A DNA stretch of 64,000 bases from Polyangiaceae bacterium (lineage in GTDB: Bacteria; Desulfobacterota; Binatia; UTPRO1). Below are positions 8,107-50,531 of the stretch, one piece after another (the first letter of the stretch is position 1; each line of letters starts with the position of its first letter). The position numbers and the translations under genes were made by a program. The stretch lies in NCBI GenBank assembly GCA_031400185.1, contig JANNPN010000182.1:5895-69894 (forward strand), given 5' to 3'. The notes below the pieces were generated by a model that ran no database searches, was not told where the DNA came from, and worked only from the letters and a program-made list of their open reading frames with translations.

Positions 8107-8135
8107 AGCGCGGCCGCGAGAAAGGACCCCCGAAC

Positions 8136-11255: not shown

Positions 11256-11277
11256 CCCTCCACCAAAGGAAGCAGTC

Positions 11278-11532
11278 ATGAGGAAACGCGAAAAATTGAC
11301 GCCCGAGGAGCGCTTTGCGCTCGCCCTCGACCTCATCAAACGCGAGCATTCGTTCGCGGAGGTGTGCTCGCACTACCACGTGAGCCACACGACGGCGTAC
11401 AAGATCCGGAACGCCTTCCTCGAAGGCGGCCGGCGCGCGCTCGCAGGCGCGCGGGCGCGTGAGCCGCTCGACGTGGTGCGCGACGAGGCTGCGACGGACG
11501 GCAACGGCATCGAAGAGAACGGGATCGGATGA
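11278..11532 (+). CDS. small helix-turn-helix protein, IS3-family OrfA-like (HTH_Tnp_1-like), stand-alone
   Basis: AAAGGA RBS 8 nt upstream of the [16 protein letters not shown]...[23 protein letters not shown] resembles the N-terminal HTH of IS3/IS911 OrfA. No transposase catalytic ORF follows. The stop overlaps the next gene's ATG. Confidence 0.5.
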
Positions 11533-16691: not shown

Positions 16692-16705
16692 TTCGGGTCG
16701 GCAAC

Positions 16706-16795
16706 GGGGGAGATTGCGCGCATCAGCGCGCAGGGAATTGCGCGCGTCAGCGGGCGGGGATTGCGCGCTCAGCGCGCAGGGGATTGCGGCGGCAG
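16706..16795. repeat. three to four tandem ~23-nt palindromic units (ATTGCGCGC-N-TCAGCGCGCAGGG), each able to form a GCGCGC hairpin
   Basis: Direct repeats are visible between the convergent Big_2 gene (+) and the histidine kinase (-). The last units overlap the 3' end of the kinase CDS. This is a likely bidirectional terminator or REP-like element. Confidence 0.5.
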
Positions 16796-17965
16796 ATCGA
16801 CGGTGAAGCGCGTGCCGCTCCCGACGGTACTCGCGACGCTCACCTCGCCGCCGAGCGTTTCGCAGAAGCGCTTCACGATGTAGAGCCCGAGCCCCGACCC
16901 GGTGCGACCGCGGCTGCCCGTGCGGAACGGAGCGAAGACGTGCGGCAAGTCTTCGGCCGCGATTCCCGTCCCGGTGTCCGAGACCTGCAGGCGGATGCGA
17001 CGGTCGTGCGGGGTTGCCGTCACCGTGACCTCGCCGCTCTCAGTGTGGCGGAGCGCGTTGTCGATCAGATTTTGCAACACCTGCCGGACCCGGAAACGAT
17101 CGCTCCGAAACGGGGGTGTTGCGGGATCGGCGTGCCAGGTGAGCGCGACGTGCTGACCGGCGCGATGGGCGAGCGAGCCCGTACAGAGCTCGTGCATGAC
17201 CTCGCCGGCCGTGAACGGCTCGACGATCTGTTGGTCGGCCTGACGCTCGATCCGCACCAGATCGAGCGCGCCTGCGAGCACGTCGTAGAGCTCGCGCGCA
17301 TGGCGCTCGATCGTCGTCAGCACTTCGCGCTGTTCGCCGGTGCAGGGGCCGTAGGTGTCGTCGATCAGGAGCTGCGTGTAGCCGAGCATCACGTTGAGCG
17401 GCTGCCGCAGGTCGTGCGAGAGCGAGGCGAGGATCTCGGCGGGCCCGGACTGGCTCGCCGCGTCGACGTGCCGTTTGTGCGCGTGCCGCAGCGCCACCGC
17501 CGCGAGCGACGCAGCGTACCGGGCGAGCCCGACGTGCTCGAGCCCGAACGCCGCACCGATCCATGGGCGGAGCTGCATCGCGAGGGGCGCGGCGTCGGCG
17601 TCGATCGGGAGCGTCAGCATCGCCGAATCGTGCATGGCGTCGCCGAGCGTCGGACGGTGCTCCGCGAGGGCGCGGCGCACGAGGGCGTCGTCACCGGCCG
17701 CGAACGGGATGCCGTAGGCGCCGCGCGTGACGAGCGTGTCGTCGCTCCGCATCTCGACGAGCCGCGCACCCGAGGCACCGAGCACGAGCGCGGTGCTTTG
17801 GCAGAGGCGGTCGGCGAGCGACGCGTCGTCGGGCGGCGCCACCAGCAGACGCTCCTGCACCTGCAGGAGCTGCTCCAGGCGGGTCGGATCGACGGGGAAG
17901 ATCGGCTCGGTGCTCACGGCGTCGACGTTGCGGACGACGGCACGCCTTCCGCTAGGTGTCGGCAC
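16769..17965 (-). CDS. sensor histidine kinase (N-terminal GAF-like sensor, HisKA, HATPase_c)
   Basis: The H-box is LSHDLRQPLNVMLGY. The N, G1 and G2 boxes are QVLQNLIDNALRHT, DTGTGI and GSGLGLYIV. No response regulator is adjacent. Confidence 0.8.
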   Translation of the reverse strand: MPTPSGRRAVVRNVDAVSTEPIFPVDPTRLEQLLQVQERLLVAPPDDASLADRLCQSTALVLGASGARLVEMRSDDTLVTRGAYGIPFAAGDDALVRRALAEHRPTLGDAMHDSAMLTLPIDADAAPLAMQLRPWIGAAFGLEHVGLARYAASLAAVALRHAHKRHVDAASQSGPAEILASLSHDLRQPLNVMLGYTQLLIDDTYGPCTGEQREVLTTIERHARELYDVLAGALDLVRIERQADQQIVEPFTAGEVMHELCTGSLAHRAGQHVALTWHADPATPPFRSDRFRVRQVLQNLIDNALRHTESGEVTVTATPHDRRIRLQVSDTGTGIAAEDLPHVFAPFRTGSRGRTGSGLGLYIVKRFCETLGGEVSVASTVGSGTRFTVDLPPQSPAR

Positions 17966-18042
17966 TCTAACGTCGGCGCTCTTCGAGGGTCAAGGGAAGT
18001 TGCGCATATCGGTGCCGATCGACTGGTCGCTCGAGGTCGCGT

Positions 18043-19092
18043 GTGGCAGGATGCCGCGTTCCCAATGCACGCCTTTCTGCACATCGTGGGTCGCGCGGGA
18101 GCACCGTGGTGATCGCCGCGCGTCCGCTTCCGGCGTCCGCGGCGCCCGCGGCCGCAGTCACGATCACGGGGCTCACGCATTGCTACGGCGAGCGCCTCGC
18201 GCTCCGCGGGGTCGATCTGCAGATCGCCCGCGGCGAGATCTTCGGCGTGCTCGGGCCCAACGGAGGCGGGAAAACCACGCTCTTCAAGGTGCTGGCGACG
18301 CTCGTGGCGCCGCAGGCCGGCACGGTCGTGGTCTTCGACGAGGATGCCGGCCGGCATCCTGAGCGGGTCAGGCGGCGACTCGGGGTCGTGTTCCAGCACC
18401 CCGCGCTCGACGGCAAGCTCACCGTCGACGAGAACCTGCACTGCCATGCGGCTCTCTATGGCCTCAGCGCGGTCGAGGGGCGCGCGCGGGCGGCGGCGCT
18501 CCGCGAGCGGCTCGGGCTCGCCGATCGCGGCCGCGACTACGTGGAGACGCTCTCCGGCGGGCTTGCCCGTCGCGTCGAGCTCGCGAAGGGTCTGCTGCAC
18601 GCGCCGGATCTGCTCCTCCTCGACGAGCCGTCGACCGGGCTCGACCCGGGTGCGCGCCGCGACTTCTTCGAGTACCTCGTGCACCTCCGCGACCGCGAGG
18701 GCCTGACCGTGGTGCTCACGACGCACTACATGGAGGAGGCCGAGCGCTGCGACCGTATCGGCTTCATGCACCAGGGCGGCCTCGTCGCAGTCGGCACGCC
18801 CGCCGCGCTGAAGGCGGAGATCGGCGGTGACGTGGTCGTCGTCGACGCGCTGGAGCCCGAACGCCTGCGCGGCCGCATCCAGCAGCGCTTCGGCTGCGAG
18901 CCGCGGCTCGTCGACGGCGTCCTCCGGATCGAGCTGCCGCGCGGTCACGAGTTCGTCCGCGAGGTCGTGGAGGCGTTTCCCGGCGACATCCGCGCGGTGA
19001 CGTTCGGGAAGCCCACCCTCGAAGACGTCTTCGTGCACCTGACCGGCGAGCGCTTCTGGAGCGAAATGCCGTCGCCGGCGGAGCGAGCGTAG
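18043..19092 (+). CDS. ABC transporter ATP-binding protein
   Basis: Walker A is GPNGGGKTT, the signature is LSGGLARRVELAKGL and Walker B is LLLLDEP. The start may instead be the GTG near 18103. Confidence 0.8.
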   Translation: MAGCRVPNARLSAHRGSRGSTVVIAARPLPASAAPAAAVTITGLTHCYGERLALRGVDLQIARGEIFGVLGPNGGGKTTLFKVLATLVAPQAGTVVVFDEDAGRHPERVRRRLGVVFQHPALDGKLTVDENLHCHAALYGLSAVEGRARAAALRERLGLADRGRDYVETLSGGLARRVELAKGLLHAPDLLLLDEPSTGLDPGARRDFFEYLVHLRDREGLTVVLTTHYMEEAERCDRIGFMHQGGLVAVGTPAALKAEIGGDVVVVDALEPERLRGRIQQRFGCEPRLVDGVLRIELPRGHEFVREVVEAFPGDIRAVTFGKPTLEDVFVHLTGERFWSEMPSPAERA

Positions 19093-19096
19093 CGGC

Positions 19097-19870
19097 ATGG
19101 CGATGCGCGGCGTGGCAGCGCTCTGGTGGCGCGAGATCATCCGTTTCGTCCGGCAGCGGAGCCGGCTCGTCGGCGCGTTCGCGCAGCCGTTGCTCTTCTG
19201 GGTGCTTCTGGGAGCCGGATTCAGCGCGTCGCTGCGTCCGCCCGGCGCGCCGGAGGATCTCGGCACGATGGCGTACTTCTATCCCGGCATCATCGGCCTC
19301 GTGCTGCTCTTCACCGCGATCTTCGCGACGATCGCAGTCGTCGAGGATCGGAAGTCGGGGTTCCTCCAGGGCGTGCTCGTGTCGCCGATCTCACGGTCCG
19401 GCATCGTGCTCGGGCAGGCGCTCGGTGGGACGACGCTCGCGGTGCTGCAGGGGGTCTTGTTCCTCGCACTCGCGCCGCTCGTCGGGATCACGCTCACCCC
19501 GACGTCGGTCGTCGCGGTCGTCCTGGTGCTTGCGGCGGTCGCGTTCGCACTCACGTCCCTCGGGCTCGTGATCGCCTGGCGGATGGAATCGACGCAGGGC
19601 TTCCACGCGATCATGAACCTGATCCTGATGCCGATCTGGCTCCTCTCCGGCGCGTTTTTCCCGGCCTCGGGCGCGGCCGGCTGGCTCGGCTGGCTGATGC
19701 AGCTGAACCCGCTGACGTACGGCATGGCGGCGCTTCGCCACTGTCTCTACTTGGATGCGCCGGCCGCCGTCGGGCGCATCCCGCCCCTCGGGCCGTCGCT
19801 GGTCGTGACGCTGCTCTTCTGTGCCGTCACGTTCGCCGCTGCCACGGCGGTCGCGCGGCGCAGTCGCTGA
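19097..19870 (+). CDS. ABC-2 type transporter permease
   Basis: 257 aa with 6 predicted TM helices. It lies immediately downstream of the ATPase. Confidence 0.8.
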   Translation: MAMRGVAALWWREIIRFVRQRSRLVGAFAQPLLFWVLLGAGFSASLRPPGAPEDLGTMAYFYPGIIGLVLLFTAIFATIAVVEDRKSGFLQGVLVSPISRSGIVLGQALGGTTLAVLQGVLFLALAPLVGITLTPTSVVAVVLVLAAVAFALTSLGLVIAWRMESTQGFHAIMNLILMPIWLLSGAFFPASGAAGWLGWLMQLNPLTYGMAALRHCLYLDAPAAVGRIPPLGPSLVVTLLFCAVTFAAATAVARRSR

Positions 19871-19880
19871 CGCCGGCCGT

Positions 19881-20816
19881 CTACCAGGGTGCGGCGGCGA
19901 GCTTGTCCGCCGCCATGATCGCGAAGAGGCATGGCAGGTAGATCAGGCTCGCGAACATCACGCGGCGTGCGTCGGCGGTCTTTGCCGAACGTGCCAATCG
20001 GAGTGATGGTGCCAGCATGCCGAGCCCGAGCAGGATCGACGCCACGAAGTAGACGGGCCCCGCGAGCCCGAGCAGCGTCGGCACCATCCCGACGCTCACG
20101 AGTGCGAGCGAATAGGTGAGGATCTGGTGCGCTGTGCTGCGTCCGTCCGGGTCGACGACTGGCAGCAGGCGGAAGCCCGCGCGCGCGTAGTCGTCCCGGT
20201 ACATCTGGGCGATCGCGAGGGAATGCGGGATCTGCCAGACGAACATGATTGCGAAGACCGCCCACGCCGCCGCGTCGAGGCTTCCGCTCGCTCCCGCCCA
20301 GCCGGTGAGGGGAGGCAGCGCGCCGGGCACGGCGCCGATCAGCGTGCAGAGCGAGGTGCGCGTCTTCGCCGGCGTGTAGGCGAAGAGGTAGCTGACGCTC
20401 GTCGCTGCGGTGATGGCGGCGGCGAGCGCAGTGCTGCCCGCGAGCAATACCAGCAGCCCGAGGAGCGTGAGCGCGGCGCCAAACGCGAGCGCGTCCGCAG
20501 GTGCCACGCGGCCGTCCGGGAGCGGGCGCCGGCGCGTCCGCGTCATCTGCGCGTCGAGGTCGCGTTCGAGGTACTGGTTCAGCGTCATGGTGCCCGCGGC
20601 CGCGAGGCCCGTGCCGACCAGCGTCATCACGAGCCGGAGCCAGTCGAACGCCGCGACGCCGGCGCCGAGCGAGTAGCCGAAGAGCGTAGTCAGCACGACC
20701 ATGGCCACAATGCGCGGCTTCGTGAGCTCGACGAAGTCGGCGATGCGGCGCTGCGCGAGCGGCAGGACCTCGGTCGCGAGGCTGAGCTCCTCGGCGGGCT
20801 TCACGGCGGGCATCAT
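19881..20816 (-). CDS. ctaB: protoheme IX farnesyltransferase (heme O synthase)
   Basis: UbiA-superfamily motifs are present (NQYLERDLDAQMTRTRRRPLPDG). ATG at 20816 sits 14 nt downstream of the ctaA stop. The upstream Arg-rich extension of the ORF was discarded. Confidence 0.85.
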   Translation of the reverse strand: MMPAVKPAEELSLATEVLPLAQRRIADFVELTKPRIVAMVVLTTLFGYSLGAGVAAFDWLRLVMTLVGTGLAAAGTMTLNQYLERDLDAQMTRTRRRPLPDGRVAPADALAFGAALTLLGLLVLLAGSTALAAAITAATSVSYLFAYTPAKTRTSLCTLIGAVPGALPPLTGWAGASGSLDAAAWAVFAIMFVWQIPHSLAIAQMYRDDYARAGFRLLPVVDPDGRSTAHQILTYSLALVSVGMVPTLLGLAGPVYFVASILLGLGMLAPSLRLARSAKTADARRVMFASLIYLPCLFAIMAADKLAAAPW

Positions 20817-41315: not shown

Positions 41316-41726
41316 TCAAGCCGAGTCGGCGAAGATGAGCGGTTGCTTCCCAGCGAGCAGCCGACGCCGCGCCGCCGGGCTCCGGTTCGCTGATGCGACC
41401 CTCCAGCGCCACGCGATGAGCGCACGCCGGAGCGGCTCGTGGGCGAGGCCCAGGGCATCGCACACGTTGACGAAGGAATAGAGCCAACGGCGGTCGTCGG
41501 ACAGGATCCAGCGCTCGGCCTCGTTGGGCCGTGTGGGGGAGCCCGCAGTCCCGACCACGCGTCGTTGGAACACGACGATGGCGTCGCAAAGAACCGCCAA
41601 CAGGAGTCGACGTTCTGGTTCCGCTACCTCGAGCGCCCGGGTAGTCTCGGCAAACTGCTCGGGCAGGAGCGGGAACGTGTCATCCCACTGATGATCTCCA
41701 CGATGGAGCATTGCAGGGTTTGACAT
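41316..41726 (-). CDS. hypothetical protein (136 aa), last gene of the CDP-alcohol cluster
   Basis: ATG at 41726 with an AGAGGA RBS 7 nt upstream. Coding-like codon usage. The upstream 340 codons of the listed ORF are Arg-rich antisense-type junk and were excluded. Confidence 0.6.
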   Translation of the reverse strand: MSNPAMLHRGDHQWDDTFPLLPEQFAETTRALEVAEPERRLLLAVLCDAIVVFQRRVVGTAGSPTRPNEAERWILSDDRRWLYSFVNVCDALGLAHEPLRRALIAWRWRVASANRSPAARRRLLAGKQPLIFADSA

Positions 41727-41827
41727 GGCGTTATCCTCTCTACTGGCAGGTACGCAGGTCCTCGGCGGGAAGTTTCGCATGCCGGGTGCCCCGCTCCGGC
41801 GCGGCGCGTCAGTTCGCCCGCACGGAG

Positions 41828-42955
41828 TCAGGCCGTGGCGCGGCGGCCGAGAGCGATCAACGCGATCGAGAAGGCATACGTCCCGAGCGCCGACATCCAG
41901 AGGAACCAGTCGAGGCGTCCGACGAGCGTCAAGCCCACGAGCAGATAGGCGAACTCCCGGCTCGCGAAGGCCTCGTAGACCGTTCGTTGGGCGTCTGTCG
42001 GAGGCCGGCGCACGATACACGTGTAGACGGTCGTCATCGCCAGCAGCACGCCGGTGAGGAGCACCCAACCCAGCACGGCTACGGTCGGGTCGCCGCTCCG
42101 ACGATGGAGGCCGCTCGCGATGCCGCCGAAGAGGAAGAGGTGGACGAGGTTGTCCCCGAGGATGTCGAGCTTCGCGCCGAAGGAGCTCTCGCGAAACGTG
42201 AGACGGGCGATCTCGCCGTCGCAGCCGTCGATGATCGTCGAGAGCAGGAAAAGCAGCGCGCCGCACATCGCTGCACCCGGCGTCCCGCGCGCGAAGCACA
42301 ACCCGCCGGCGATCCCGATGGCGATCGATGCAATCGTCACCTGGTTCGGCGAAATGCCCGTCGGGAGCAGCAGGCGTGTGAGCGCGCGTGAGAAGCGCCG
42401 GTCGACCACGCGTGTGAACCAGCCGTCGCCGGTACGCCCGATGCGCGCGTAGAGCGCGAGCTCGGCGGCGATGCGGCTTTCGGCGTCGCGCGCGCTCGTC
42501 ACGAGCCCGCCCGGGGGCGGGGTCCACGCGGTCGCCTCCGCGGGCGGTGCCAGGGAGGCGGCATCCCGAGCGTCGCGGAGCTGCGCAGCGACGGTTGCGC
42601 CGTCTGCGCGCCAGAGGCAGGCCGGGGGCGGCGCCGCGAGGGGACGCGACTCGGTGGCGGCGACGAGCGCGGCGATCGTCGCGGGCTCCGTGACGGTGGT
42701 CGCCGCAGTGACCACGACGATCGCCGTGGCGTCGTAGCTCCATGGAGGCGCGTCAGCGCTCCAGCCGACCGCGATCTGCGGCAGGCGCAAGGGCATCGAC
42801 GGTCGCGGGCCCACGCAGAGGAGCCGTCGCGCGCCCGCGCGTGCGAGCACGAACGCGGCGCGTTCCACGAGGCGAAGACCACCGACGATCTCGCCCGCGC
42901 CCGGACCGACTGCGATCACCCCGTCAAAGGGCGGCCCGGCCCCGGCGTCAGGCAC
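41828..42955 (-). CDS. fusion protein: N-terminal nucleotidyltransferase-like domain + CDP-alcohol phosphatidyltransferase (DIPP-synthase-like architecture)
   Basis: The C-terminal TM region carries the CDP-OH phosphotransferase motif DGCDGEIARL...G...D...D. The N-terminal ~215 aa are soluble with a degenerate G-rich loop (IAVGPGAGEIVGGLRL). The GTG start overlaps the upstream stop. Confidence 0.8.
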   Translation of the reverse strand: MPDAGAGPPFDGVIAVGPGAGEIVGGLRLVERAAFVLARAGARRLLCVGPRPSMPLRLPQIAVGWSADAPPWSYDATAIVVVTAATTVTEPATIAALVAATESRPLAAPPPACLWRADGATVAAQLRDARDAASLAPPAEATAWTPPPGGLVTSARDAESRIAAELALYARIGRTGDGWFTRVVDRRFSRALTRLLLPTGISPNQVTIASIAIGIAGGLCFARGTPGAAMCGALLFLLSTIIDGCDGEIARLTFRESSFGAKLDILGDNLVHLFLFGGIASGLHRRSGDPTVAVLGWVLLTGVLLAMTTVYTCIVRRPPTDAQRTVYEAFASREFAYLLVGLTLVGRLDWFLWMSALGTYAFSIALIALGRRATA

Positions 42956-44027
42956 CGCTGGTCGGATTCGAGGGCCGCGCGTCCGGGACCGGGTCGACCA
43001 GTATCACGCGCACGCCGCCGTTCGCCGCCGATTGATAGCCCCGCTCGACCAGCCGGCAGCAGGCTTCGGCCTCGCGAAAGTTCTCGCCGCGCACGTTCGG
43101 ATCGTGCAGCTCCTGATGGAAGTCATCGAGCATCGTCGCGAACCAGTCCGCGTGATACGAGCCTGCGGACAGCGGCTGCGCGAAGGCCGTTTCAACCGGC
43201 GTGCGCTCGCCGACCGCCGTGACGAGCGTCCGATCGGCGATCGTCACGCTGCCGAGCGCGCCGGTCACCATGCCGGTGTTGCGGCGCACGTCACCCGCCC
43301 ACGTGAGGAAGATTTCTGCCCGCGCATTCGGGAACTCGACCGCGCACTCGGCGGTGTCCTCGACGCCGGCCGTAGTGAACTTGCGCTGCGAGGTGACGGC
43401 TGTGATCGCGACCGGGTCGGCGTCGACGAGATGCCGTGCCAGATAAAAGGCATGCCATCCGTGGTCCACCATGATGCCGCCGCCGGCGCGCGCAGGATCG
43501 AGCCGCCATGTGCCGCCGTCGCCTGCGTCCGTCGGCGGTGTCGTACGGATCGTCTCGAGCCGGACGTGCGTGACCGCGCCGACGTCGCCGCGCCGGAGCG
43601 TGCGCTTCGCTGTGCGGATGATCGGCGCGTACTTCCAGTTGTGGGTCGTGAACACCACCGCGCGCGCCGCGCTCGCGGCGCTCCGGATTCGGCGGCACTC
43701 GTCCCACTGGACCGTGAGCGGCTTTTCGCAGAGCACGTGCACCCGTTTTGCGAGGGCCTCGAGCACGATCGCGGTGTGGCTCGCGGGCGGGGTCGCGACG
43801 TCGACGAAGTCGAGGCGCTCGGTCTTGAGCAGCTCCTCGAGCGTCGCGTAACGCTTCGCGGTTGGCAGGAGCTCGGCCGCAAGCGCGAGGCGCGCCTCGT
43901 CGGAATCGCACACGGCCACGATCGTGAACTGCCGGTGCTTCTGCCATGCGGGCAGGTGGCCCTCGACGGCGACGTTGCCAAACCCGACGATCGCGCCGCG
44001 AAGCGGTCGGGGACGTCGCGCGGTCAC
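42948..44027 (-). CDS. Gfo/Idh/MocA family NAD(P)-dependent oxidoreductase (inositol/sugar dehydrogenase-like)
   Basis: GAIVGFGNVAVEGHLPAW Rossmann motif and the EKP motif (VLCEKPL). ATGA overlap with the upstream aminotransferase. Confidence 0.85.
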   Translation of the reverse strand: MTARRPRPLRGAIVGFGNVAVEGHLPAWQKHRQFTIVAVCDSDEARLALAAELLPTAKRYATLEELLKTERLDFVDVATPPASHTAIVLEALAKRVHVLCEKPLTVQWDECRRIRSAASAARAVVFTTHNWKYAPIIRTAKRTLRRGDVGAVTHVRLETIRTTPPTDAGDGGTWRLDPARAGGGIMVDHGWHAFYLARHLVDADPVAITAVTSQRKFTTAGVEDTAECAVEFPNARAEIFLTWAGDVRRNTGMVTGALGSVTIADRTLVTAVGERTPVETAFAQPLSAGSYHADWFATMLDDFHQELHDPNVRGENFREAEACCRLVERGYQSAANGGVRVILVDPVPDARPSNPTSGA

Positions 44028-45346
44028 GGCGTCCCGAGCTCGGCTGCGGCGCGCGCGAACACCTGGTCCAGGATGTCGAGACCATGGTCCGCTTGCTCGC
44101 GCGTGATCGTGAGGGGCGGATTGATCCGGACGCGCGGGAAGTAGCCCATCATCAGGAGGCCGTGCTGCAGTGCATCGAGGAAGATGTGCTCGGTCGCGGA
44201 TCGGCTCAGCAGCTCGTTCGTCGAGCGATCGGCGACGAGGTCCACCCCGATCATGAGGCCGACGCCGCGCACGTCGCCGATGAACGCATATTTCTCCTGC
44301 ATGGCGCGTAGGCGATCGAGCATGTGGGCCCCGACTTGCGCGGCATGCTCGACCAGGCCCTCGTCCACGATAGCCTCGAGCGTCGCGAGCGCGGCCGTCG
44401 ACGCGAGGGGGTTGCCGCCGTAACTCGAGGATGACGCGCTCGCACGCGCGAACGGCTCGGCCGAGACCACGTCATCGGACGAGATGAGCCCGCTGATCGG
44501 ATACCCGTTCCCCATTCCCTTGCCGACGGTCAGGATGTCCGGGACCACGTCGGTGTGGTTGCAGCCGAACCACCGGCCGGTGCGTCCGAAGCCAGTAATC
44601 ATCTCGTCCGCGATCAGGAGCGCACCGATATCCTTGGCGATGTCTTGAATCGCGGGCAGGAACTCGCGGGGCGGAATGACGTTCCCCGCCGTACCCTGCA
44701 TCGGCTCGATGACGATCGCCGCGACCGCACCCGAGGTCTGGCGCTTGATCGCTTGGCGGGCGAAATCCGCGCACGCGAGTCCGCAGTCGGGGTAGCGGAG
44801 CTGAAACGGACACCGTGCGCAATCGGCGTATGGCACTGAAAACCGTCCGCCTGGCAGCGGTCCCCATCCGTGCTTCGACTCGTCGCCGATGAGCCCCATG
44901 ACGCCGGCGGTCTTGCCGTGGAACCCGCCCCAAAATCCGACGATCTCGTGCTTTCCCGTGAAGGACATGGCGAGACGGAACGCCGCCTCGACCGCCTCCG
45001 CGCCGCCGCTGTAGAGCTGTGTGCGGCCGAGGTTCCCGGGTGCGAGCTTGGCGATCAGCTTCAGCAGCTTCGCGCGGTTCTCGGTCGTGAAGCTGCCGAC
45101 TGAGATGCGGCGGAGCTGCGCTTCGACTTTCTCGATGTAGCTGGGGTGCGCGTGCCCGAGGCTTGCCACCGCGACGCCGGCAAAGAAATCGAGGTAAGTG
45201 TTGCCGTCGAGGTCGGTGACGGTGGCGCCGCGTCCGGAGGCGAGCGCAAGCTCCGAGAGCAGCGCGATGCGTTGCTGCCCGGGCGCGACCACCGCTTGCT
45301 CGTCGCGGAAGAGGCTGCGGGTCTTGGGGCCGGGTTTCTTATCCAT
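44024..45346 (-). CDS. class-III (GabT/ornithine-type) PLP-dependent aminotransferase
   Basis: Aminotran_3 motifs are present (DEMITGFGRTGRWFG; the lysine in TVGKGMGNG). AAGGA RBS before the ATG at 45346. Confidence 0.85.
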   Translation of the reverse strand: MDKKPGPKTRSLFRDEQAVVAPGQQRIALLSELALASGRGATVTDLDGNTYLDFFAGVAVASLGHAHPSYIEKVEAQLRRISVGSFTTENRAKLLKLIAKLAPGNLGRTQLYSGGAEAVEAAFRLAMSFTGKHEIVGFWGGFHGKTAGVMGLIGDESKHGWGPLPGGRFSVPYADCARCPFQLRYPDCGLACADFARQAIKRQTSGAVAAIVIEPMQGTAGNVIPPREFLPAIQDIAKDIGALLIADEMITGFGRTGRWFGCNHTDVVPDILTVGKGMGNGYPISGLISSDDVVSAEPFARASASSSSYGGNPLASTAALATLEAIVDEGLVEHAAQVGAHMLDRLRAMQEKYAFIGDVRGVGLMIGVDLVADRSTNELLSRSATEHIFLDALQHGLLMMGYFPRVRINPPLTITREQADHGLDILDQVFARAAAELGTP

Positions 45347-46154
45347 ACCGTCCTTGCCTATGGCGAGCGGCCGCTCCGAGCCGGTCGGCGACGTAGCCGG
45401 CAATGGCGTCGGCGGCTTCGTCGCGGCAGCGTGCGAAGCTCGGCCAATCGTTGACGTCGACGAGGAACGGGGTGCCGGCGGGTGTCACGACGAGGTCGCC
45501 GCCGAAGACGTCGAGCCCGAGCGCGGATGCGCCGGCGTGGGCGGCTTCCCAGAGCACGGGGATGGGCGCGGGGATCTCGGATGTCGAGCCGTAGCAGCGA
45601 AAGAAGCGACCGTCCGCGACGCCGTAGAACTTCACGACCACGCCGCCGACGTGATCCTGCACGACGGCCCGTGTGATGCCGCGGGCCGCGAACTGCGCGA
45701 GCGCCTCCCGCACGCCCGACGAGGTGTCGGCGAAAACGACGTCGTCGGCCGCCATCGCATGGACGTCGCCGCGTTTCACCCAGCACGGTGCGTGCTGGGC
45801 GACGTTCGATGCTGCAGTGTCGGTTGCGACGATGCGGGTTCGTGGGTACGGCGCCGACGTCGCTGCGAGGCGCCGCACCGTCTCGTGGCGATGGCAGGCG
45901 CGAATCGCGTCGGGCGCATTGATGACCGGGATGCTCCCGGCGACGTCGTCGAGCACCGCCAGGCTCCGGGGCGATTGGCACATCGCAAGCACCGCTGCCG
46001 GCCGTTCGCGTGCGAGATCGTCGACCGTCCCGAGCGCCATCGCGATGCCGCGCGCGGCCAGCGCATCGCGCGTGCGCTCGAGGATCGCAGCATCGTCGTC
46101 GACGCGGCCCGGAGAGTACTCGGGCTCGCGGAGCATCCCTACGAGGAGCGTCAT
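45339..46154 (-). CDS. ATP-grasp-like protein (putative ligase/kinase)
   Basis: The C-terminal region GVVVKFYGVADGRFF...DVFGGDLVVTPAGTPFLVDVNDWPSF resembles an ATP-grasp fold. The assignment is tentative. Confidence 0.55.
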   Translation of the reverse strand: MTLLVGMLREPEYSPGRVDDDAAILERTRDALAARGIAMALGTVDDLARERPAAVLAMCQSPRSLAVLDDVAGSIPVINAPDAIRACHRHETVRRLAATSAPYPRTRIVATDTAASNVAQHAPCWVKRGDVHAMAADDVVFADTSSGVREALAQFAARGITRAVVQDHVGGVVVKFYGVADGRFFRCYGSTSEIPAPIPVLWEAAHAGASALGLDVFGGDLVVTPAGTPFLVDVNDWPSFARCRDEAADAIAGYVADRLGAAARHRQGRYG

Positions 46155-46161
46155 CGGTGCT

Positions 46162-46860
46162 TCACGGCTTCACGCCGAGCAGGTGCTCGGCGGCGACGAT
46201 GTCCTCGGGGCGATCGACGTCGATGCATGGTCCCACGTCGAATCCGTAGAGGGGATGACCGCGGGCGAGCAGGGCCGCGAGGATCGCGCGAAAAGCCGTG
46301 AAACGTCGCGCCGGCGCGTCATCCGCGAGGCCATACACGAGGGGTTGCAGGAAGTAAACGCCGGCCGTCACGTGGCGTGCGCGCATCGCGTCGCCGAGCG
46401 ATCGAATGCGCTCCGCGGCGTCGACCTCGGCCCAGAGGGGCTTCTCGTCGTCGACCGTTTCCGTGACCCCGAGCACGCTCGTCCCCGGGGGAAGGTCGCA
46501 CGCGCGCCGCACGAGCGCCGCGAGCGCGCCCGGGTTGCACACGGTGTCGACCGTTGTGAGTAAGAACGGCGCGTGCTCGAGGTGGGGCCTGAGCGCGAGG
46601 AAGCTCTCGGCCGAGCTGACCGTCGTACGCTGGACGACGTCGAGCGGGACGGGCCACGCCGTCGCGTGCAGATAGTTTCGCACGAGATCGGTCTCGGCGT
46701 TCACGATGCACGCGATGCGCGTCGCCCCGGCGCCAGCGAGCGCGTCGATCGTGCGTGCGATGAGCGGCCGGCCGCCGATTTCGAGAAGCGGCTTCGGCGT
46801 GGTGATCCCACGCGCCTGGAGGCGCTCGCCGAGCCCGGCGGCGATGATTCCCGCGATCAT
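46162..46860 (-). CDS. nucleotidyltransferase (NTP_transferase / MobA-like; candidate CTP:alcohol-phosphate cytidylyltransferase)
   Basis: MIAGIIAAGLGERL...PKPLLEIGGRPLI matches the G-rich loop and substrate loop of sugar/alcohol-phosphate nucleotidyltransferases. ATGA overlap with the upstream HAD gene. Confidence 0.8.
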   Translation of the reverse strand: MIAGIIAAGLGERLQARGITTPKPLLEIGGRPLIARTIDALAGAGATRIACIVNAETDLVRNYLHATAWPVPLDVVQRTTVSSAESFLALRPHLEHAPFLLTTVDTVCNPGALAALVRRACDLPPGTSVLGVTETVDDEKPLWAEVDAAERIRSLGDAMRARHVTAGVYFLQPLVYGLADDAPARRFTAFRAILAALLARGHPLYGFDVGPCIDVDRPEDIVAAEHLLGVKP

Positions 46861-47570
46861 GCGAGCAGCGCCTCGAGATCGAGGAGCGACGCGAGCCGCC
46901 AGATGCCCGTGGGCTCCGCCGGCATGGTGACCTCGGGGCGTGCGAGCCAGGCGGTGCGCATCCCGATCGCGTGCGCCGGAACGACGTCGCGCTCCCATGA
47001 GTCGCCGACGTGGAGGATGACGTCGGCGGGAAGGGCGAGCCGAGCCGCTGCGAGCTCGTAGATCGCGGGATCGGGTTTGGTGATTCCGACCAGCGCCGAG
47101 TCGACGACCACTGCGAACGGCGCGAGCTTCGCTTCGGCGAGAAGCGCCGGCATGTTGCCGTACGAGTTGGAGACGACGCCGAGACGGAACTCCCGACTCA
47201 GCCGTTGCAGCAGCAGCCGATTGCGATCCCACGCATCCCGCGTCTTGGCGACGAACGCGTCCGTGAGGCTGTTCGCGAGCCTGCGGTCGTCGCACGCGAG
47301 CCGCTGGAGCTGCAGCGCCACGTGCGTACGTACCATGCGGTCGAGACCGTACGTCCGGATCTCGGGCTCGCGGGCGAGTGCGGCGTCGGCGGAGTAAAAC
47401 GCGTCCTTCAGCGCTGGATACGCCACGTCGGCACCGGCCTCCGCGTACAGGCGGACGAAGTGATCGAACCAGTGCTGGGCGTCGCCGTCGAGCGTGCCCC
47501 CGTAGTCGAGCAGTACCGCCGCGAGGCCGTCGCGCCTCCCGACTTCGCGAGACGTCGCCGCCGCGGTCAC
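46857..47570 (-). CDS. HAD-superfamily hydrolase (phosphatase)
   Basis: Motif I LLDYGGTL, motif II VVSNS and motif IV GDSWERD. It is the first gene of the minus-strand operon. Confidence 0.8.
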   Translation of the reverse strand: MTAAATSREVGRRDGLAAVLLDYGGTLDGDAQHWFDHFVRLYAEAGADVAYPALKDAFYSADAALAREPEIRTYGLDRMVRTHVALQLQRLACDDRRLANSLTDAFVAKTRDAWDRNRLLLQRLSREFRLGVVSNSYGNMPALLAEAKLAPFAVVVDSALVGITKPDPAIYELAAARLALPADVILHVGDSWERDVVPAHAIGMRTAWLARPEVTMPAEPTGIWRLASLLDLEALLA

Positions 47571-47589
47571 GCGGCAGAGCTACCAGGCG

Positions 47590-48900
47590 ATGCGTGGCCC
47601 TTCAATTGACGCGCGTAGGCTCGAGCGCTACGTGACCGCGGACGTGAGGGCGGTGGAGATTCCGGCGGTCGCAGTCGCCGAACGGGCGACGGGCGCGTCG
47701 GAAGCACGCGCGGTGGTCTTCGTGCCGAGCCCGCGTGTCTGGCATCGTCAGGGAACGCCGGGCGGGCTGTCGTTGCTCGAGCGCCAGCTGAAACAGCTCC
47801 GCACGCTCGGCGCGAGTCCGGCGTTGCTCCTGGTGCCTGCGGATCAGCCCGAGCCCATTCTGTCAAACGGCCTCGGTCCGGTCGCGATTGCCCGCGTGCC
47901 GCGCGCCACGAGCGATCTGGGGGCGGCGCTCGCGGCAGCACCGGCGTTGCCACACGCGAGCCTCGCGCTCAGCGCCGATCGCCTGGTCGACCTCCGTGTG
48001 CTGCGGGCGCTCGCCGACGCCGGCGACACGACGTTCGCGACGGTCGACGGCGTCCGTCCCGAGCCCGTCGGCTGGGTGCAGGCGGCCGACGTCGCCCGTC
48101 ATGGCGCCGCCGTCACTGCACGTGCGCGACGCCTGCCGCTCGCGTCGCTCGACCCGTACAGCGCCGAGCTCCGCGGTACGGCGATGCCGTACGTGATCGC
48201 GAGCGGGACGACGGCGGAGCGTCGCCGCGCCTGGGACGTGCTGATCGACCATGTGCAGAAACGGTCGCTCGACCTTCCGGGGCAGTACTTCGACACTCCG
48301 TTCGAGAATTTCCTCGTCCGCCGTCTCGCGCCGACCGACGTGACGCCGAACCAGATCACGCTGCTCACGCTGGTCGTGGCGTGCGTGGTCGCCGGTTTTT
48401 TTCTGCACGGCTGGCTCCGGGTCGGGATCCTGCTGGCGCTCGTCGTCGGGGTCCTCGATGGGGTCGACGGCAAGCTCGCGCGTCTGAAGCTCGCCACCTC
48501 GAAGCTCGGCGAGCTCGAGCACGTCGGCGACTTCTTCTACGAGAGCTCCTGGTACCTGACGTTGGCCTCGTATCTCGCGAGCGCAACCGCGCGCGTCGGG
48601 CTCTGGTACGCGGGGCTCGTGCTCGTCGCCTGCGACCTGGCGGACAGCCTGCTCTATTTCGCCGCGCAGCGCCGCACCGGGAAGATGCTCGACGAGCTCA
48701 CGCCGTTCGACCGGCGATTCCGCGCGATCGCGGGGCGCCGGAACATCTACGTCGTGATCTTCGTCGTCGGGTTTTTCACCGGGCACGCGACGACGGCGTT
48801 TCTCTGCGTGGTTGCGTGGGCGATCTGTACGGTCGCCGTGCACGCGTCACGGGTCGCGTGGCTGCTCGCCACCGAACCGCGCCCGCTTCGGGCCGAATGA
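47590..48900 (+). CDS. fusion protein: N-terminal nucleotidyltransferase-like domain + CDP-alcohol phosphatidyltransferase (paralog of 41828..42955)
   Basis: DGVDGKLARLK...G...D...D in a C-terminal TM domain. The N-terminal GGLSLLERQLKQL...PALLLVP is nucleotidyltransferase-like. Divergent from the HAD operon. The start is uncertain; a GTG near 47632 is possible. Confidence 0.75.
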   Translation: MRGPSIDARRLERYVTADVRAVEIPAVAVAERATGASEARAVVFVPSPRVWHRQGTPGGLSLLERQLKQLRTLGASPALLLVPADQPEPILSNGLGPVAIARVPRATSDLGAALAAAPALPHASLALSADRLVDLRVLRALADAGDTTFATVDGVRPEPVGWVQAADVARHGAAVTARARRLPLASLDPYSAELRGTAMPYVIASGTTAERRRAWDVLIDHVQKRSLDLPGQYFDTPFENFLVRRLAPTDVTPNQITLLTLVVACVVAGFFLHGWLRVGILLALVVGVLDGVDGKLARLKLATSKLGELEHVGDFFYESSWYLTLASYLASATARVGLWYAGLVLVACDLADSLLYFAAQRRTGKMLDELTPFDRRFRAIAGRRNIYVVIFVVGFFTGHATTAFLCVVAWAICTVAVHASRVAWLLATEPRPLRAE

Positions 48901-49869
48901 CAGCGCGGCGAACGCCGCAAGGCCGATCGCCGCGCCGGCGAGCTGGTTCAGGCGCAGGATGACGGCGACCGCGAGTCCGGTCGCGGCGTCGAAACCGAAC
49001 GTCGTGAACACGAGGACGCGGCCGGCCTCCTGCACGCCGATCCGTCCCGGCACGAGGAACGCCGCCGAATCGAGCACGAGCGCAAACGCCTCGATCGCGA
49101 GGCACGTCGCGAACGGCGTCGGCATGCCGAGTGCCCACAAGATGAATGCGAGCTGGACGAGGCTCACGAGCTGGCCGCCGGCGTGCCACGCCACCGAGCC
49201 GACGAACGCCCGCGGACGCTCGCGATAGAACGCCGACAGGTGCGCGTCGAGGGCGGCACTCCCGGCGTGAAGACGGTCGGCGAGGGCGCGCGCGACGCCG
49301 AGGCGGCGAACGGCGTTGGCTGCGAGCCCGAAGATGCCGCGCTGCTGCAGCTGCACGAACCCGAAGACGCCGCCGACCGTCGCTGCGAACGCCACGACGA
49401 TCGCAATCGCGAGATCGGGCGTGTCCCGCGTCCGTCCGAGCACCGCGGAGAGCCCGAGCAGCACGAGGGTTGCTTGGCCGAGGGCGTAGCTCATGCGGGC
49501 GGCGACGAGCGAGGCGGCGGTGACGGCGGTCGGGAGGCGCGGGCGTAGCAGCATGGTCTTCACGACCTCGCCCCCGACAGTCGCGGTCGGTGTCAGCTGG
49601 TTGATCGCGACGCCCGCCTGGCGGACCCAGAACAGCAGCGTGAACGGGACCGCGGCGTCGGGCGGCAAGGTCCGGCGCCACGCGATCGTGTTGCAGAAGT
49701 CGATCACGAGCTCGAGCACGATGACCCCGACGATCGCCCAGCCGAAGCCGTGGAGATCGTCCAGTAGGCGGCGCGCGCCGACGTGATGCACGAGGAGACC
49801 GAGCAGCACGAGGCCCGCGACGAGCAATGCCGCCTGGACGGTGCGCGCGGTGCGCAACGCTCCGGTCAC
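48776..49869 (-). CDS. lysylphosphatidylglycerol-synthase-like TM-region / flippase-like domain protein (UPF0104)
   Basis: Eight or more TM helices. The pattern resembles the PF03706 family (...GVQEAG...). The GTG start at 49869 overlaps the purN stop (GTGA). The Arg-rich N-terminal extension was excluded. Confidence 0.65.
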
Positions 49870-50531
49870 GCCGTCGGCGGCTCGGGATTTGCGAGTGCCG
49901 CGTCGCGCGCGGATGTGGCACCGGCGATCTCGACGCGCCGCCCGTCGATGCGCACGCGGCCTTCGGCGATCAGCTGGATCGCGTACGGAAAGAGGCGGTG
50001 CTCCTGGCACTGGACGCGGGCGTGCAGCGTTTGCTCGGTGTCGTCCGGGAGGATCGGGACGGCGGCCTGTGCGAGGATCGGGCCGTGATCGGTCTCCTCG
50101 TCGACGAAGTGCACCGTTACCCCGGTGATGCGTGCGCCATGCGCCAGCGCTTGCCGTTCGGCGTGCAGCCCGGGAAACGCCGGGAGCAGCGCGGGGTGGA
50201 CGTTCAGCACGCGCTGCGGAAAGGCCGCAAGCAGCACCGGCGTGACGAGGCGCATGAACCCCGCCAGGACCACGAGCTCCACCTGATGGGTACGCAGGAC
50301 CTCGACGAGTCGTGCGTCGTACGCTTCGCGCGACGGCGCATCGCGGTGGGGAAGTGAGATTGTGGTGAGGTCGTGGCGCCGTGCACGCTCGATCCCGAGC
50401 GCATCGGGGACGTTGCTCACGACGACCGCGATCCGGGCGTCGAGCCGGCGCGCGCCGATGGCATCGATCAGGGCTTGCAGATTGGTGCCGCTGCCCGAAA
50501 GCAGGACGCCGAGCGCGAGCGGCTCAGGCAT
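49866..50531 (-). CDS. purN: phosphoribosylglycinamide formyltransferase
   Basis: LGVLLSGSGTNLQALID...NVHPALLPAFPG... Confidence 0.9.
   Translation of the reverse strand: MPEPLALGVLLSGSGTNLQALIDAIGARRLDARIAVVVSNVPDALGIERARRHDLTTISLPHRDAPSREAYDARLVEVLRTHQVELVVLAGFMRLVTPVLLAAFPQRVLNVHPALLPAFPGLHAERQALAHGARITGVTVHFVDEETDHGPILAQAAVPILPDDTEQTLHARVQCQEHRLFPYAIQLIAEGRVRIDGRRVEIAGATSARDAALANPEPPTA

Follow-up and report, generated by a model that had tools for sequence, protein, structure and literature searches.

A gene cluster recurring across bacterial phyla, with a candidate role in making an aminated inositol-type lipid head group

A cluster of genes in a 64,000-nucleotide stretch of DNA from Polyangiaceae bacterium (the window) appears, on balance, to make an inositol-derived, aminated phospho-head group that is attached to a membrane lipid. 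With similarly moderate confidence, it is read as an extension of the "alternative" inositol-lipid cluster known from Bacteroidetes, which is of the CDP-inositol type. The order HAD hydrolase, NTP transferase, ATP-grasp protein, aminotransferase, dehydrogenase was found, as in the window, in at least eight phyla with differing flanks, usually accompanied by one or two CDP-alcohol phosphotransferases and an LPG_synthase_TM protein.

Gene content and conservation of the cluster

All nine genes listed in the initial annotation were present and intact as open reading frames of the predicted families, with coordinates slightly off in two. Seven follow one another on the minus strand: an HAD hydrolase (46857-47570; Pfam Hydrolase/HAD_2/Hydrolase_like), a MobA-like/sugar-phosphate NTP transferase (46162-46860; NTP_transf_3, NTP_transferase), a 271-aa ATP-grasp protein (45339-46154; assigned from the fold of its AlphaFold model, with no match in Pfam), a class-III (omega) aminotransferase (44024-45346; Aminotran_3, E 4e-96), a Gfo/Idh/MocA NAD(P)-dependent dehydrogenase (42948-44027; GFO_IDH_MocA and C-terminal domains), CDP-alcohol phosphotransferase 1 with its N-terminal soluble domain (41828-42955; CDP-OH_P_transf) and a 136-aa small ORF (41316-41726). 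The successive junctions were a 4-nt overlap, a 7-nt gap, overlaps of 8, 4 and 8 nt, and a gap of ~100 nt before the small ORF, with lengths taken from gene calls on an identical 9.1-kb contig. The NTP transferase gene is nested in a longer spurious ORF (46162-47295). The genome has a GC content of ~70% and is probably one of Binatota. CDP-alcohol phosphotransferase 2 is divergent (47590-48900, plus strand; CDP-OH_P_transf, E 7e-8), and with a spacing of only 19 nt to the start of the HAD gene, its own start is uncertain. The LPG_synthase_TM (flippase-like) membrane protein was present as claimed; its gene was corrected from 48776-49869 to 48847-49869 (minus strand; Pfam 85.7 bits), 48776 being where an ORF of a different frame ends. 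The gene shares 4 nt with the purN stop at its start and 54 nt with the end of transferase 2 at its 3' end. The protein is HpnL-like (TIGR03476, 145.5 bits, under the 195.65 cut-off), and no protein of the cluster reached an NCBIfam equivalog cut-off.

A search with the ATP-grasp profile recovered at least 595 genome loci, of which the best 80 were taken as relatives; neighbours were counted up to 7 kb away from the ATP-grasp gene. In these 80 loci the NTP transferase was present in 70, a CDP-alcohol transferase in 69, an HAD orthologue in 67 and the LPG_synthase_TM gene, which most often adjoins the CDP-alcohol transferase, in 36. The aminotransferase was found in 55 of the 80, every time directly after the ATP-grasp gene, and the dehydrogenase in 51, in each case along with the aminotransferase; 25 loci kept the ATP-grasp gene without either. 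Going by the titles of the records, the cluster occurs in Binatia-like lineages, Gemmatimonadota, Desulfobacterota (including the cultured Desulfoferrobacter suflitae), Methylomirabilota/Rokubacteria, Verrucomicrobiota, Ignavibacteria, Elusimicrobiota, Nitrospirota and Pseudolabrys, and a short form (NTP transferase, ATP-grasp, CDP-alcohol transferase, HAD) in Bacteroidales and Runella. Fusions were found of NTP transferase with ATP-grasp (P0267, P0271, P0282, P0304, P0379, P0380), of HAD, NTP transferase and ATP-grasp, of ATP-grasp with CDP-alcohol transferase and of ATP-grasp with aminotransferase (P0236 and, apparently, L072).

The survey of relatives for co-occurrence, proposed at the outset, thus returned a conserved cluster, and gene order kept across phyla supports the claim that the genes form one functional unit. 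The competing explanation, that they are unrelated housekeeping neighbours adjacent by chance, draws on the synteny of the whole region within Binatia, purM/purN, MurJ and MazG included; conservation within that class alone therefore proves little. It is refuted, and left with a negligible probability, by a gene order that stays the same in at least eight phyla while the flanks differ, and by the existence of several member pairs as fusion proteins. The small ORF, originally counted with the cluster, is probably no part of the pathway: Pfam and NCBIfam searches gave no match, homologues among the compared loci were confined to Binatia (L002-L005), and in L003 an opposite-strand PagL gene stands between it and the transferase.

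Candidate substrate and modifying enzymes

The pathway proposed here was inferred from family membership, gene linkage and fusions, which were observed directly. In a first step, MIPS would supply myo-inositol phosphate. Pfam-verified MIPS genes of two types were found in the fetched flank of 25 of the best 80 of at least 595 loci, 16 of the 25 being long forms with aminotransferase and dehydrogenase; MIPS beside related clusters points to an inositol phosphate as substrate. The absence of MIPS from the window was confirmed with ten queries of both prokaryotic types (phmmer, window ORFs of at least 70 aa), and none was found in Binatia loci L002-L005 either, so supply here would depend on another part of the genome or on salvage. 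This absence is one ground for a rather improbable alternative, in which the pathway in Binatia would take an alcohol phosphate other than that of inositol, e.g. of a polyol derived from glycerol, a pentitol or a sugar; an amino-polyol phospho-head group (aminopentanetetrol-like/serinol-like) as its product, rather than an inosamine, is given equally little credence. The same alternative is consistent with the dehydrogenase scoring equally well on xylose dehydrogenase and IolG, and with the binding of CDP-glycerol by AF2299 (PMC4634129). However, clear orthology links the Binatia enzymes to those of MIPS-linked clusters, where the genes also follow the same order (identities of 55-62% for the window aminotransferase, 35-44% for the dehydrogenase and 38-42% for the ATP-grasp protein), and MIPS is often encoded apart from the cluster, with exceptions noted, e.g. 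P. copri (PMC9246714).

With inositol phosphate as the preferred substrate, one ring hydroxyl would next be oxidised to a ketone by the Gfo/Idh/MocA protein, a predicted inositol(-phosphate) dehydrogenase, and the keto intermediate would be aminated by the class-III enzyme, a predicted keto-inositol(-phosphate) aminotransferase, yielding an inosamine-type cyclitol (phosphate). This inosose-to-inosamine branch, suggested in the initial annotation, gained support from MIPS beside the cluster in the 16 long-form loci. The aminotransferase is the best-conserved cluster member (51-69% identity over ~430 aa across phyla), and none of its matches attained an NCBIfam equivalog cut-off. The dehydrogenase matched weakly to D-xylose dehydrogenase Gfo6 (88.7 bits) and IolG (83 bits, cut-off 355).

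The ATP-grasp protein is a member of an undescribed subfamily and the marker of the cluster family. Its model (pLDDT 92.7) has the ATP-grasp fold, and an ITPK-like kinase role is as likely as a RimK-like ligase role. As a kinase, the reading preferred for step 3, it would add a second phosphate. A kinase is suggested because the gene also sits in clusters without the amine. The family profile has ITPK4 as its best PDB sequence match, with human and amoebal ITPK1 matching too, and Foldseek placed maize ITPK1 second. ITPK1/ITPK4 can be aligned at the D-x-N-x-x-P motif and the strand before it, and the Mg-binding motif is D-x-N, shared with the aligned ITPKs, in place of the E-x-N of the aligned RimK and PsnB ligases. 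A ligase would instead join a carboxylate, e.g. an amino acid, to the head group as an amide or ester, which is possible though doubtful; the corresponding product, an acylated inosamine or aminoacyl-inositol head group flipped by the MprF-like TM protein, is held just as tentatively. Acylation of the amine, as first proposed, was weakened by the retention of the gene in the 25 loci (best 80 of at least 595) without aminotransferase or dehydrogenase, and by the NTP transferase fusions, which fit successive kinase and activation steps. In the account of the B. vulgatus inositol ceramide there is no report of a head-group modification (PMC9246714).

Step 4 would be formation of the CDP-cyclitol by the NTP transferase, a predicted IPCT-like sugar/alcohol-phosphate nucleotidyltransferase making the CDP-activated head-group donor. 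It carries the GxGxR...KP signature, aligns with the entire IPCT half of NF041135 (36 bits, cut-off 580) and matches T. maritima inositol-1-phosphate cytidylyltransferase (4jd0) over its full length (E 2e-5). IPCT-like NTP transferases also accept phosphoglycerate, phosphocholine and phosphoglutamine (PMC12275187); family resemblance therefore leaves the substrate unfixed, a point that also favours the non-inositol alternative. The HAD-superfamily hydrolase is predicted to be the phosphatase of the pathway. Its motif I is D-Y-G-G-T, without Asp at position +2, and D[FYML]GGT was found in 69 of 71 orthologues from the best 80 of at least 595 loci; its best NCBIfam match was the REG-2-like HAD-IA subfamily, under the cut-off.

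Transferases and the lipid or solute product

In step 5, an AF2299-like CDP-alcohol phosphotransferase would form the phosphodiester to an acceptor, either diacylglycerol or ceramide, or would use a CDP-diacylglycerol/cyclitol-phosphate pair. Transferase 1 resembles A. fulgidus AF2299 (4o6m/4o6n) in size and architecture, with an N-terminal cytidylyltransferase-like soluble domain and six TM helices. Its CDP-AP signature, D243xxDGxxAR...GxxxDxxxD268, is complete and invariant in alignment A3. Among solved proteins, AF2299 was its best match by sequence (E 2e-18; IPCT/DIPPS was also among the best) and by structure, the AF2 model (pLDDT 90.2) superposing along the whole length (Foldseek TM 0.67/0.74), although overall identity is only ~20%. 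The donor in the AF2299 structure is CDP-glycerol (PMC4634129), and its physiological product is not established in the literature read; the match is thus informative on fold and reaction class but not on substrates. Transferase 2 is a divergent paralogue whose N-terminal domain is longer and whose signature is a variant, D290GVDGKLAR-x8-G-x2-E310-x3-D314, in which the third Asp is replaced by Glu; the variant is kept in the orthologues of L002, L012, L013 and L072, and in Desulfobacterales and Myxococcales loci transferase 2 is located inside the cluster. The best-scoring NCBIfam families of both were all inositol-phosphate enzymes, namely DIPPS (63.6 bits for transferase 1, its top match; cut-off 580), archaetidylinositol-phosphate synthase/DIPPS (~40 bits for transferase 2, under the cut-offs) and PIPS (42.5 and 24.1, cut-off 170). 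The HAD protein would then remove the remaining phosphate, as in PIP to PI and DIPP to DIP (step 6), and the LPG_synthase_TM protein would translocate the lipid (step 7).

A lipid head group and a solute had both been proposed. The lipid was favoured by context in other phyla: genes for Spt, GNAT-type ceramide synthase and CerR-type reductase adjoin 13 loci (Gemmatimonadota, Verrucomicrobiota, Runella) and an MMPL transporter occurs in 6, both among the best 80 of at least 595 loci, MlaC and YhdP lie beside the cluster in D. suflitae, and LPG_synthase_TM is closely linked to AF2299-like transferases in many loci. Against the lipid, the inspected ceramide-gene loci L043 and L066 carry a different, short CDP-alcohol transferase type. 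No lipid with an amine-bearing inositol-derived head group was found in the literature searched.

A soluble, aminated phosphodiester (compatible solute) related to di-myo-inositol phosphate or glycerophospho-inositol is unlikely as the product. The route to it, in which CDP-cyclitol from the NTP transferase would be coupled to a second cyclitol phosphate or a polyol phosphate by an AF2299/DIPPS-like enzyme and dephosphorylated by HAD, is regarded as no more probable. MIPS, IPCT-like, DIPPS-like and phosphatase genes are the exact DIP gene set, the six-helix layout of the membrane domain is typical of soluble-acceptor enzymes, and no ceramide genes were found in the window. To our knowledge, DIP-type solutes are found in hyperthermophiles, unlike the soil, sediment and gut mesophiles of these lineages. 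AF2299 and IPCT/DIPPS, the closest solved homologues, are described in PMC4634129 as processing soluble substrates and not lipids; against this, a homologous short cluster occurs in inositol-phosphoceramide producers without the other known route (PMC9246714).

Comparison with known systems

As first suggested, an NTP transferase combined with a CDP-alcohol transferase and a phosphatase has links both to chemistry of the CDP-inositol/DIP type and to the alternative inositol-lipid route. The DIP pathway (A. fulgidus IPCT/DIPPS 4mnd, T. maritima IPCT 4jd0) shares the four enzyme types MIPS, IPCT, DIPPS and phosphatase and the logic of a CDP-inositol donor, a phosphorylated product and a final dephosphorylation. 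It differs in that the cluster scores 63.6 and 36 against the equivalog cut-off of 580, its NTP transferase is a separate protein, and the fused N-terminal domain of the transferase has, on inspection, no recognisable GxGxR...K nucleotidyltransferase signature; the cluster also adds ATP-grasp, aminotransferase, dehydrogenase and TM-protein genes, and its hosts are mesophiles. The bacterial PIP synthase route (PgsA1/PIPS and PIP phosphatase; BT_1523/BT_1525) likewise uses a CDP-alcohol phosphotransferase on inositol phosphate and then a phosphatase, with an inositol lipid as end product. It requires no dedicated NTP transferase, because its donor is CDP-diacylglycerol.

Aminocyclitols are made via dehydrogenase/aminotransferase pairs in the rhizopine (IdhA/MosB), streptomycin, spectinomycin and validamycin pathways, in which a Gfo/Idh/MocA-type inositol dehydrogenase and then a PLP aminotransferase turn a hydroxyl of the cyclitol into an amine; validamycin biosynthesis moreover has a cyclitol kinase together with NTP transferase, aminotransferase and HAD phosphatase. 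Their aminotransferases are mostly of the DegT/StsC type, whereas that of the cluster is class III. Their products are secreted secondary metabolites rather than membrane head groups, and glycosyltransferases or other antibiotic-type genes are absent from the cluster.

The initial annotation knew of no characterised pathway with exactly this gene set. The core has a partial precedent, its four-gene form corresponding to a cluster put forward as an alternative route to inositol lipids in Bacteroidetes (BVU_RS13095/13105/13115 of B. vulgatus; Heaver et al., 2022, PMC9246714); that paper mentions neither the ATP-grasp gene nor an aminotransferase, and B. vulgatus produces inositol-phosphoceramide. 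The long form extends this proposed pathway of gut Bacteroidetes, itself experimentally unconfirmed. Like the long form, the Bacteroidetes cluster has an NTP transferase, a CDP-alcohol phosphotransferase and HAD; an LPG-synthase-type TM protein and MIPS are encoded close by. The Bacteroidales short form recovered with the ATP-grasp profile, and equated with the BVU locus tags by gene order and not by sequence, comprised NTP transferase, ATP-grasp, CDP-AP, LPG_synthase_TM and HAD, adjoining MIPS, with 32-35% identity to the window for HAD, NTP transferase and ATP-grasp. The Bacteroidetes form differs in being without aminotransferase and dehydrogenase and in having a short (~300 aa) transferase with a DS[AC]DGQLAR motif, where the window has the AF2299-like type.

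Gene content and linkage of the cluster

We regard the cluster as an extended form of an inositol head-group pathway that has been proposed but is unproven; this form is widespread, and from it an aminated cyclitol head group is predicted. Genes were placed from the ORF listing and family scans, and their starts were fixed by an identical 9.1-kb metagenome (Logan) contig with independent gene calls. The minus strand encodes a HAD hydrolase (46857-47570), an NTP transferase (46162-46860), an ATP-grasp-like protein (45339-46154; ORF listing and fold), a class-III aminotransferase (44024-45346), a Gfo/Idh/MocA dehydrogenase (42948-44027), CDP-alcohol phosphotransferase 1 (41828-42955), a small ORF (41316-41726; ORF listing) and an LPG_synthase_TM protein (48847-49869). 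CDP-alcohol phosphotransferase 2 is encoded on the plus strand (47590-48900). Every gene named in the initial annotation was present, and the tight junctions that it reported were found, with a 4-nt overlap, a 7-nt gap and then overlaps of 8, 4 and 8 nt. Position 48776, which it gave as the end of the TM protein, comes from an ORF in a different reading frame. GC content is about 70% over the full window, and spurious long alternative-frame ORFs, typical of DNA of this composition, overlap real genes at 41316-42743, 46162-47295 and 48776-49921; one of them is probably the source of the wrong coordinate.

The small ORF was rejected as a cluster member, its homologues being confined to Binatia. 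In one Binatia genome (locus L003) transferase 1 is separated from this ORF by an oppositely oriented gene for the lipid A deacylase PagL (10749-11306). The start of LPG_synthase_TM overlaps the purN stop by 4 nt (49866-49869), with equal adjacency in the related loci L002 and L003; because of this overlap, the gene appears to be translationally coupled in Binatia to purM/purN and not to the other cluster genes. A promoter and terminator scan gave signal no higher than shuffled expectation.

Clustered at 50%, the ATP-grasp family comprised 970 representatives. At least 595 loci were found on scanning one genome per species; the best 80 were fetched and their ORFs searched with the window proteins. 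Within 7 kb of the ATP-grasp gene, an NTP transferase was found in 70/80 loci, a CDP-alcohol transferase in 69, HAD in 67, the aminotransferase in 55, the dehydrogenase in 51 (always alongside the aminotransferase) and LPG_synthase_TM in 36; these counts are lower bounds, since many contigs are incomplete. Fusion proteins join NTP transferase to ATP-grasp (n = 6), ATP-grasp to CDP-alcohol transferase (n = 2) and HAD to NTP transferase and ATP-grasp. The long form of the cluster, which carries the aminotransferase and dehydrogenase, has a gene order identical to that of the window. It was found in Gemmatimonadota, Desulfobacterota (including the cultured Desulfoferrobacter suflitae DRH4), Syntrophobacteraceae, Methylomirabilota/Rokubacteria, Verrucomicrobiota, Ignavibacteria, Elusimicrobiota, Nitrospirota and Pseudolabrys. 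Among the members, conservation is highest in the aminotransferase (51-69% identity over the full length), and intact cluster copies outside Binatia scored 467-686 bits, against 32-102 bits for unrelated class-III aminotransferases at the same loci.

Window homologues at 55-72% identity carried the label Candidatus Binatia or, where the record was older, Deltaproteobacteria or Polyangiaceae UTPRO1; the window thus probably belongs to a Binatota genome, of an uncultured lineage. Two other Binatia genomes have in common with the window both the cluster and its flanks (purM/purN, MurJ, MazG, glutaredoxin and an ACT-domain protein). As these housekeeping flanks are also shared, conservation inside Binatia alone is uninformative. 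The survey of relatives for co-occurrence returned a conserved cluster, the opposite of the freely varying neighbours that the initial annotation had named as evidence against a pathway. The cluster is real and is not ordinary housekeeping.

Several loci showed local irregularities. In two Binatia MAGs, transferase 1 (L003/L005, 8827-10735) and the aminotransferase (L004, 10698-12152) are broken into several overlapping ORF fragments, through either long-read frameshift errors or pseudogene formation. In D. suflitae (L007) a B12-binding radical SAM gene (7097-8557) ends 12 nt inside the HAD gene, and downstream (14235-20789) lie an outer-membrane efflux protein, MlaC, a second radical SAM protein, an AF2299-like transferase on the other strand, and YhdP. 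A locus labelled Bifidobacterium sp. MAG (L016) holds a Verrucomicrobia-like cluster with ceramide genes, and one labelled [Ruminococcus] lactaris (L035) holds a Bacteroidales-like version, which suggests mis-binned or mislabelled contigs in public records.

Substrate and predicted reactions

The entry metabolite is most probably an inositol phosphate, on the basis of linkage to myo-inositol-phosphate synthase (MIPS) and of the inositol-phosphate enzymes that head the transferase match lists. MIPS, of two sequence types, was found in the fetched flank of 25/80 loci and was Pfam-verified in ten cases. Sixteen of the 25 loci are long form, from Gemmatimonadales, Ignavibacteria, Methylomirabilota/Rokubacteria, Nitrospirota, Pseudolabrys, Thermodesulfobacteriota and others; the Runella operon has a PfkB-family kinase instead of MIPS. 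MIPS searches found none in the 64-kb window, as the initial annotation had stated, and none in the Binatia loci L002-L005. When a protein search was run with a cluster-linked MIPS, none of the at least 8000 near-equal matches listed was traceable to a Binatia contig. The NTP transferase aligns along the entire IPCT half of the model for the di-myo-inositol-phosphate enzymes IPCT/DIPPS, and with the T. maritima inositol-1-phosphate cytidylyltransferase (4jd0). Assignment to inositol calls for caution, as IPCT-like NTP transferases act on several substrates, including phosphoglycerate, phosphocholine and phosphoglutamine (PMC12275187), and this genome is without MIPS within 64 kb.

The dehydrogenase and aminotransferase genes form an insertion between those for ATP-grasp and the transferase. 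They are most naturally read as a pair in which the dehydrogenase would oxidise a ring hydroxyl and the aminotransferase would then transaminate the product. Oxidation followed by transamination is how inosamines are classically made in the pathways to rhizopine and aminocyclitol antibiotics. The dehydrogenase scored 83.2 bits against IolG (TIGR04380, cut-off 355) and is a Gfo/Idh/MocA member at the superfamily level only. Of 71 HAD orthologues (L004-L083), 69 have D-[FYML]-G-G-T as motif I (window protein aa 22-26). Position +2 is Gly instead of the usual general acid/base Asp, a substitution that may matter for the assignment as a simple phosphatase.

The initial annotation had the ATP-grasp enzyme acylating the amine. 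As a general function this is unlikely, because the gene is a core member, is kept in loci that have no amine branch and is fused to the NTP transferase. In profile comparisons, a Pfam scan including Ins134_P3_kin (PF05770) gave no match for the window protein, weak PF05770 matches were seen in 12 of 55 relatives, and the family profile matched ITPK4 in the PDB (E 8.6e-8). With hhalign only the C-terminal 46 residues aligned to an approximate ITPK1 query sequence. The RimK/LysX subfamily score (TIGR00768) was not reached, and structure comparisons did not separate kinase from ligase. A kinase role would account for the conserved HAD phosphatase, which is superfluous in a simple Kennedy-type transfer. 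The MIPS product is D-Ins-3-P. We infer a scheme in which the kinase would phosphorylate it at the enantiotopic position to give Ins(1,3)P2. One phosphate would be activated as the CDP ester and then transferred, giving a PI-3-P-like intermediate of the same kind as in the PIP synthase route, from which HAD would remove the phosphate.

Transferases and nature of the product

Both transferases pass the Pfam cut-off for the CDP-alcohol phosphotransferase superfamily (PF01066). Transferase 1 has the complete signature DxxDGxxAR...GxxxDxxxD (D243...D268), invariant in the alignment. Its AF2 model (pLDDT 90.2) has an N-terminal cytidylyltransferase-like soluble domain and a six-TM transferase domain, an AF2299-like architecture. 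Foldseek gave a full-length match to AF2299 (4o6n/4o6m, TM 0.67/0.74), and the N-terminal domain by itself also matched IspD, HddC and IPCT. Transferase 2 forms a separate clade with the variant signature DGVDGKLAR-x8-G-x2-E-x3-D (aa 290-314), with Glu in place of the third Asp and a spacing shorter by one residue. This variant is kept in orthologues from three lineages, Binatia, Myxococcales and Desulfobacterales (L002 4045-5319, L012 405-1676, L013 5682-6929 and L072 13150-14367). The homologues P0108-P0118 (~437 aa) were rejected as transferase 2 orthologues after alignment placed them in another transferase-1-type clade.

No cluster protein reached an NCBIfam equivalog cut-off. Against IPCT/DIPPS (NF041135, cut-off 580) transferase 1, transferase 2 and the NTP transferase scored 63.6, 40.4 and 36.1 bits. 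The two transferases scored 42.5 and 24.1 against the PIP synthase model (NF045883, cut-off 170), and 50.4 and 41.0 against the archaetidylinositol-phosphate synthase model (NF040950, cut-off 180). The LPG_synthase_TM protein (340 aa) has PF03706 as its sole Pfam match; the MprF C-terminal aminoacyl-PG synthase domain was absent in the Pfam scan, and the HpnL score (TIGR03476, 145.5 bits) was below the cut-off of 195.65.

The product is probably a lipid. In 13 loci the cluster adjoins genes for Spt, a ceramide synthase of GNAT type and a CerR-type reductase; six of these loci are from Gemmatimonadota, five from Verrucomicrobiota, one from a mislabelled MAG and one from Runella, where the genes form one co-directional string with a fatty-acid hydroxylase. 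An MMPL transporter in six loci, MlaC and YhdP adjoining the cluster in D. suflitae, and the LPG_synthase_TM gene, which mostly abuts a transferase gene, were also counted for a lipid, as was the presence of the short form of the cluster in species that make inositol-phosphoceramide (PMC9246714). A soluble phosphodiester, the less probable product, would suit the six-helix layout of the Binatia transferases and their affinity to AF2299 and DIPPS. These two are the top sequence matches of transferase 1, and both are reported not to handle lipids (PMC4634129). The solute reading also draws on the lack of ceramide genes in the window and on the ceramide-adjoining loci inspected (L043 and L066), which have the other, short transferase type.

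Relation to the putative Bacteroidetes inositol-lipid cluster

Neither aminotransferase nor dehydrogenase was found in 25/80 loci. This short form consists of NTP transferase, ATP-grasp, a short transferase and HAD, with the TM protein in some, and occurs mostly in Bacteroidales (Muribaculaceae, Prevotellaceae, Bacteroides, Phocaeicola and Alloprevotella) and in Runella. The alternative cluster of Heaver et al. consists of an NTP transferase, a CDP-alcohol phosphatidyltransferase and a HAD hydrolase adjoining MIPS, with an LPG-synthase homologue near; a Kennedy-type route through CDP-inositol was proposed and is functionally unconfirmed, and neither an ATP-grasp protein nor an aminotransferase is mentioned (PMC9246714). 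The order of the five genes in L080, a Phocaeicola locus, agrees with how their locus tags are spaced, and from gene order, not from sequence, we infer that L080 corresponds to this cluster. No follow-up on it was found in the open-access papers searched.

In 17 Bacteroidales short-form loci (L035, L040, L044, L048, L057, L058, L062, L069, L071, L073-L075, L077 and L079-L082) a PdxA-family dehydrogenase gene lies directly upstream of the NTP transferase. As pdxA of the window is 35 kb distant, it was set aside as a cluster member, being probable lineage synteny. In Runella defluvii DSM 17976 (L066, 3089-15883) co-directional genes encode, in order, Spt-like, GNAT-type ceramide synthase-like, epimerase/reductase, CarboxypepD_reg+DUF5686, NTP transferase, ATP-grasp, CDP-alcohol transferase, LPG_synthase_TM, HAD, PfkB kinase, DUF4833 and fatty-acid hydroxylase proteins. 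The string has the appearance of a full candidate operon for inositol sphingolipids, and its host is in culture. A carboxypeptidase-regulatory-like BT_1527 homologue lies near both clusters of Heaver et al. (PMC9246714).

These data show that the proposed Bacteroidetes alternative route includes an ATP-grasp enzyme as the product of a fourth core gene, that the core is spread well beyond gut Bacteroidetes, and that an oxidation and transamination module is carried with it in most environmental lineages. Together they predict a cyclitol head group, zwitterionic or cationic, that is so far unreported. Inositol lipids are regarded as rare in bacteria. Tentatively, and at somewhat under an even chance, we propose a new class of bacterial membrane lipid, phospho-inosamine (aminocyclitol) glycerolipids and sphingolipids. 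They would be made by a conserved six-to-eight-gene cluster in several hundred species of at least eight phyla, with an ITPK-like ATP-grasp enzyme as a bacterial inositol-phosphate kinase and a CDP-cyclitol step of Kennedy type. This kinase would also fill an overlooked gap in the Bacteroidetes alternative pathway and, if so, would explain its requirement for a HAD phosphatase. The predicted head group would alter membrane charge, and so could affect cationic-peptide resistance, metal binding and envelope biophysics. It could account for unidentified aminophospholipids of environmental lipidomics, and would provide further lipid biomarkers for Gemmatimonadota, Verrucomicrobiota, Binatota, Methylomirabilota and related groups.

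Searches on Binatota CDP-alcohol/inositol, inosamine lipids and Gemmatimonadetes/Verrucomicrobia sphingolipid head groups found no description of such a lipid or gene set in open-access papers; since only these were covered, this does not prove novelty. The statement in the initial annotation that it knew of no characterised pathway with exactly this gene set holds for that literature, with the qualification that the core had already been proposed in Bacteroidetes.

Like the Bacteroidetes alternative cluster, the window cluster has NTP transferase, CDP-alcohol phosphotransferase and HAD hydrolase genes co-located; unlike it, it has no adjoining MIPS. The window HAD, NTP transferase and ATP-grasp proteins are 32-35% identical over 200-280 aa to those of L040, L066 and L080, whereas the window transferase matches the Bacteroidales short transferase weakly and is of a different subtype.
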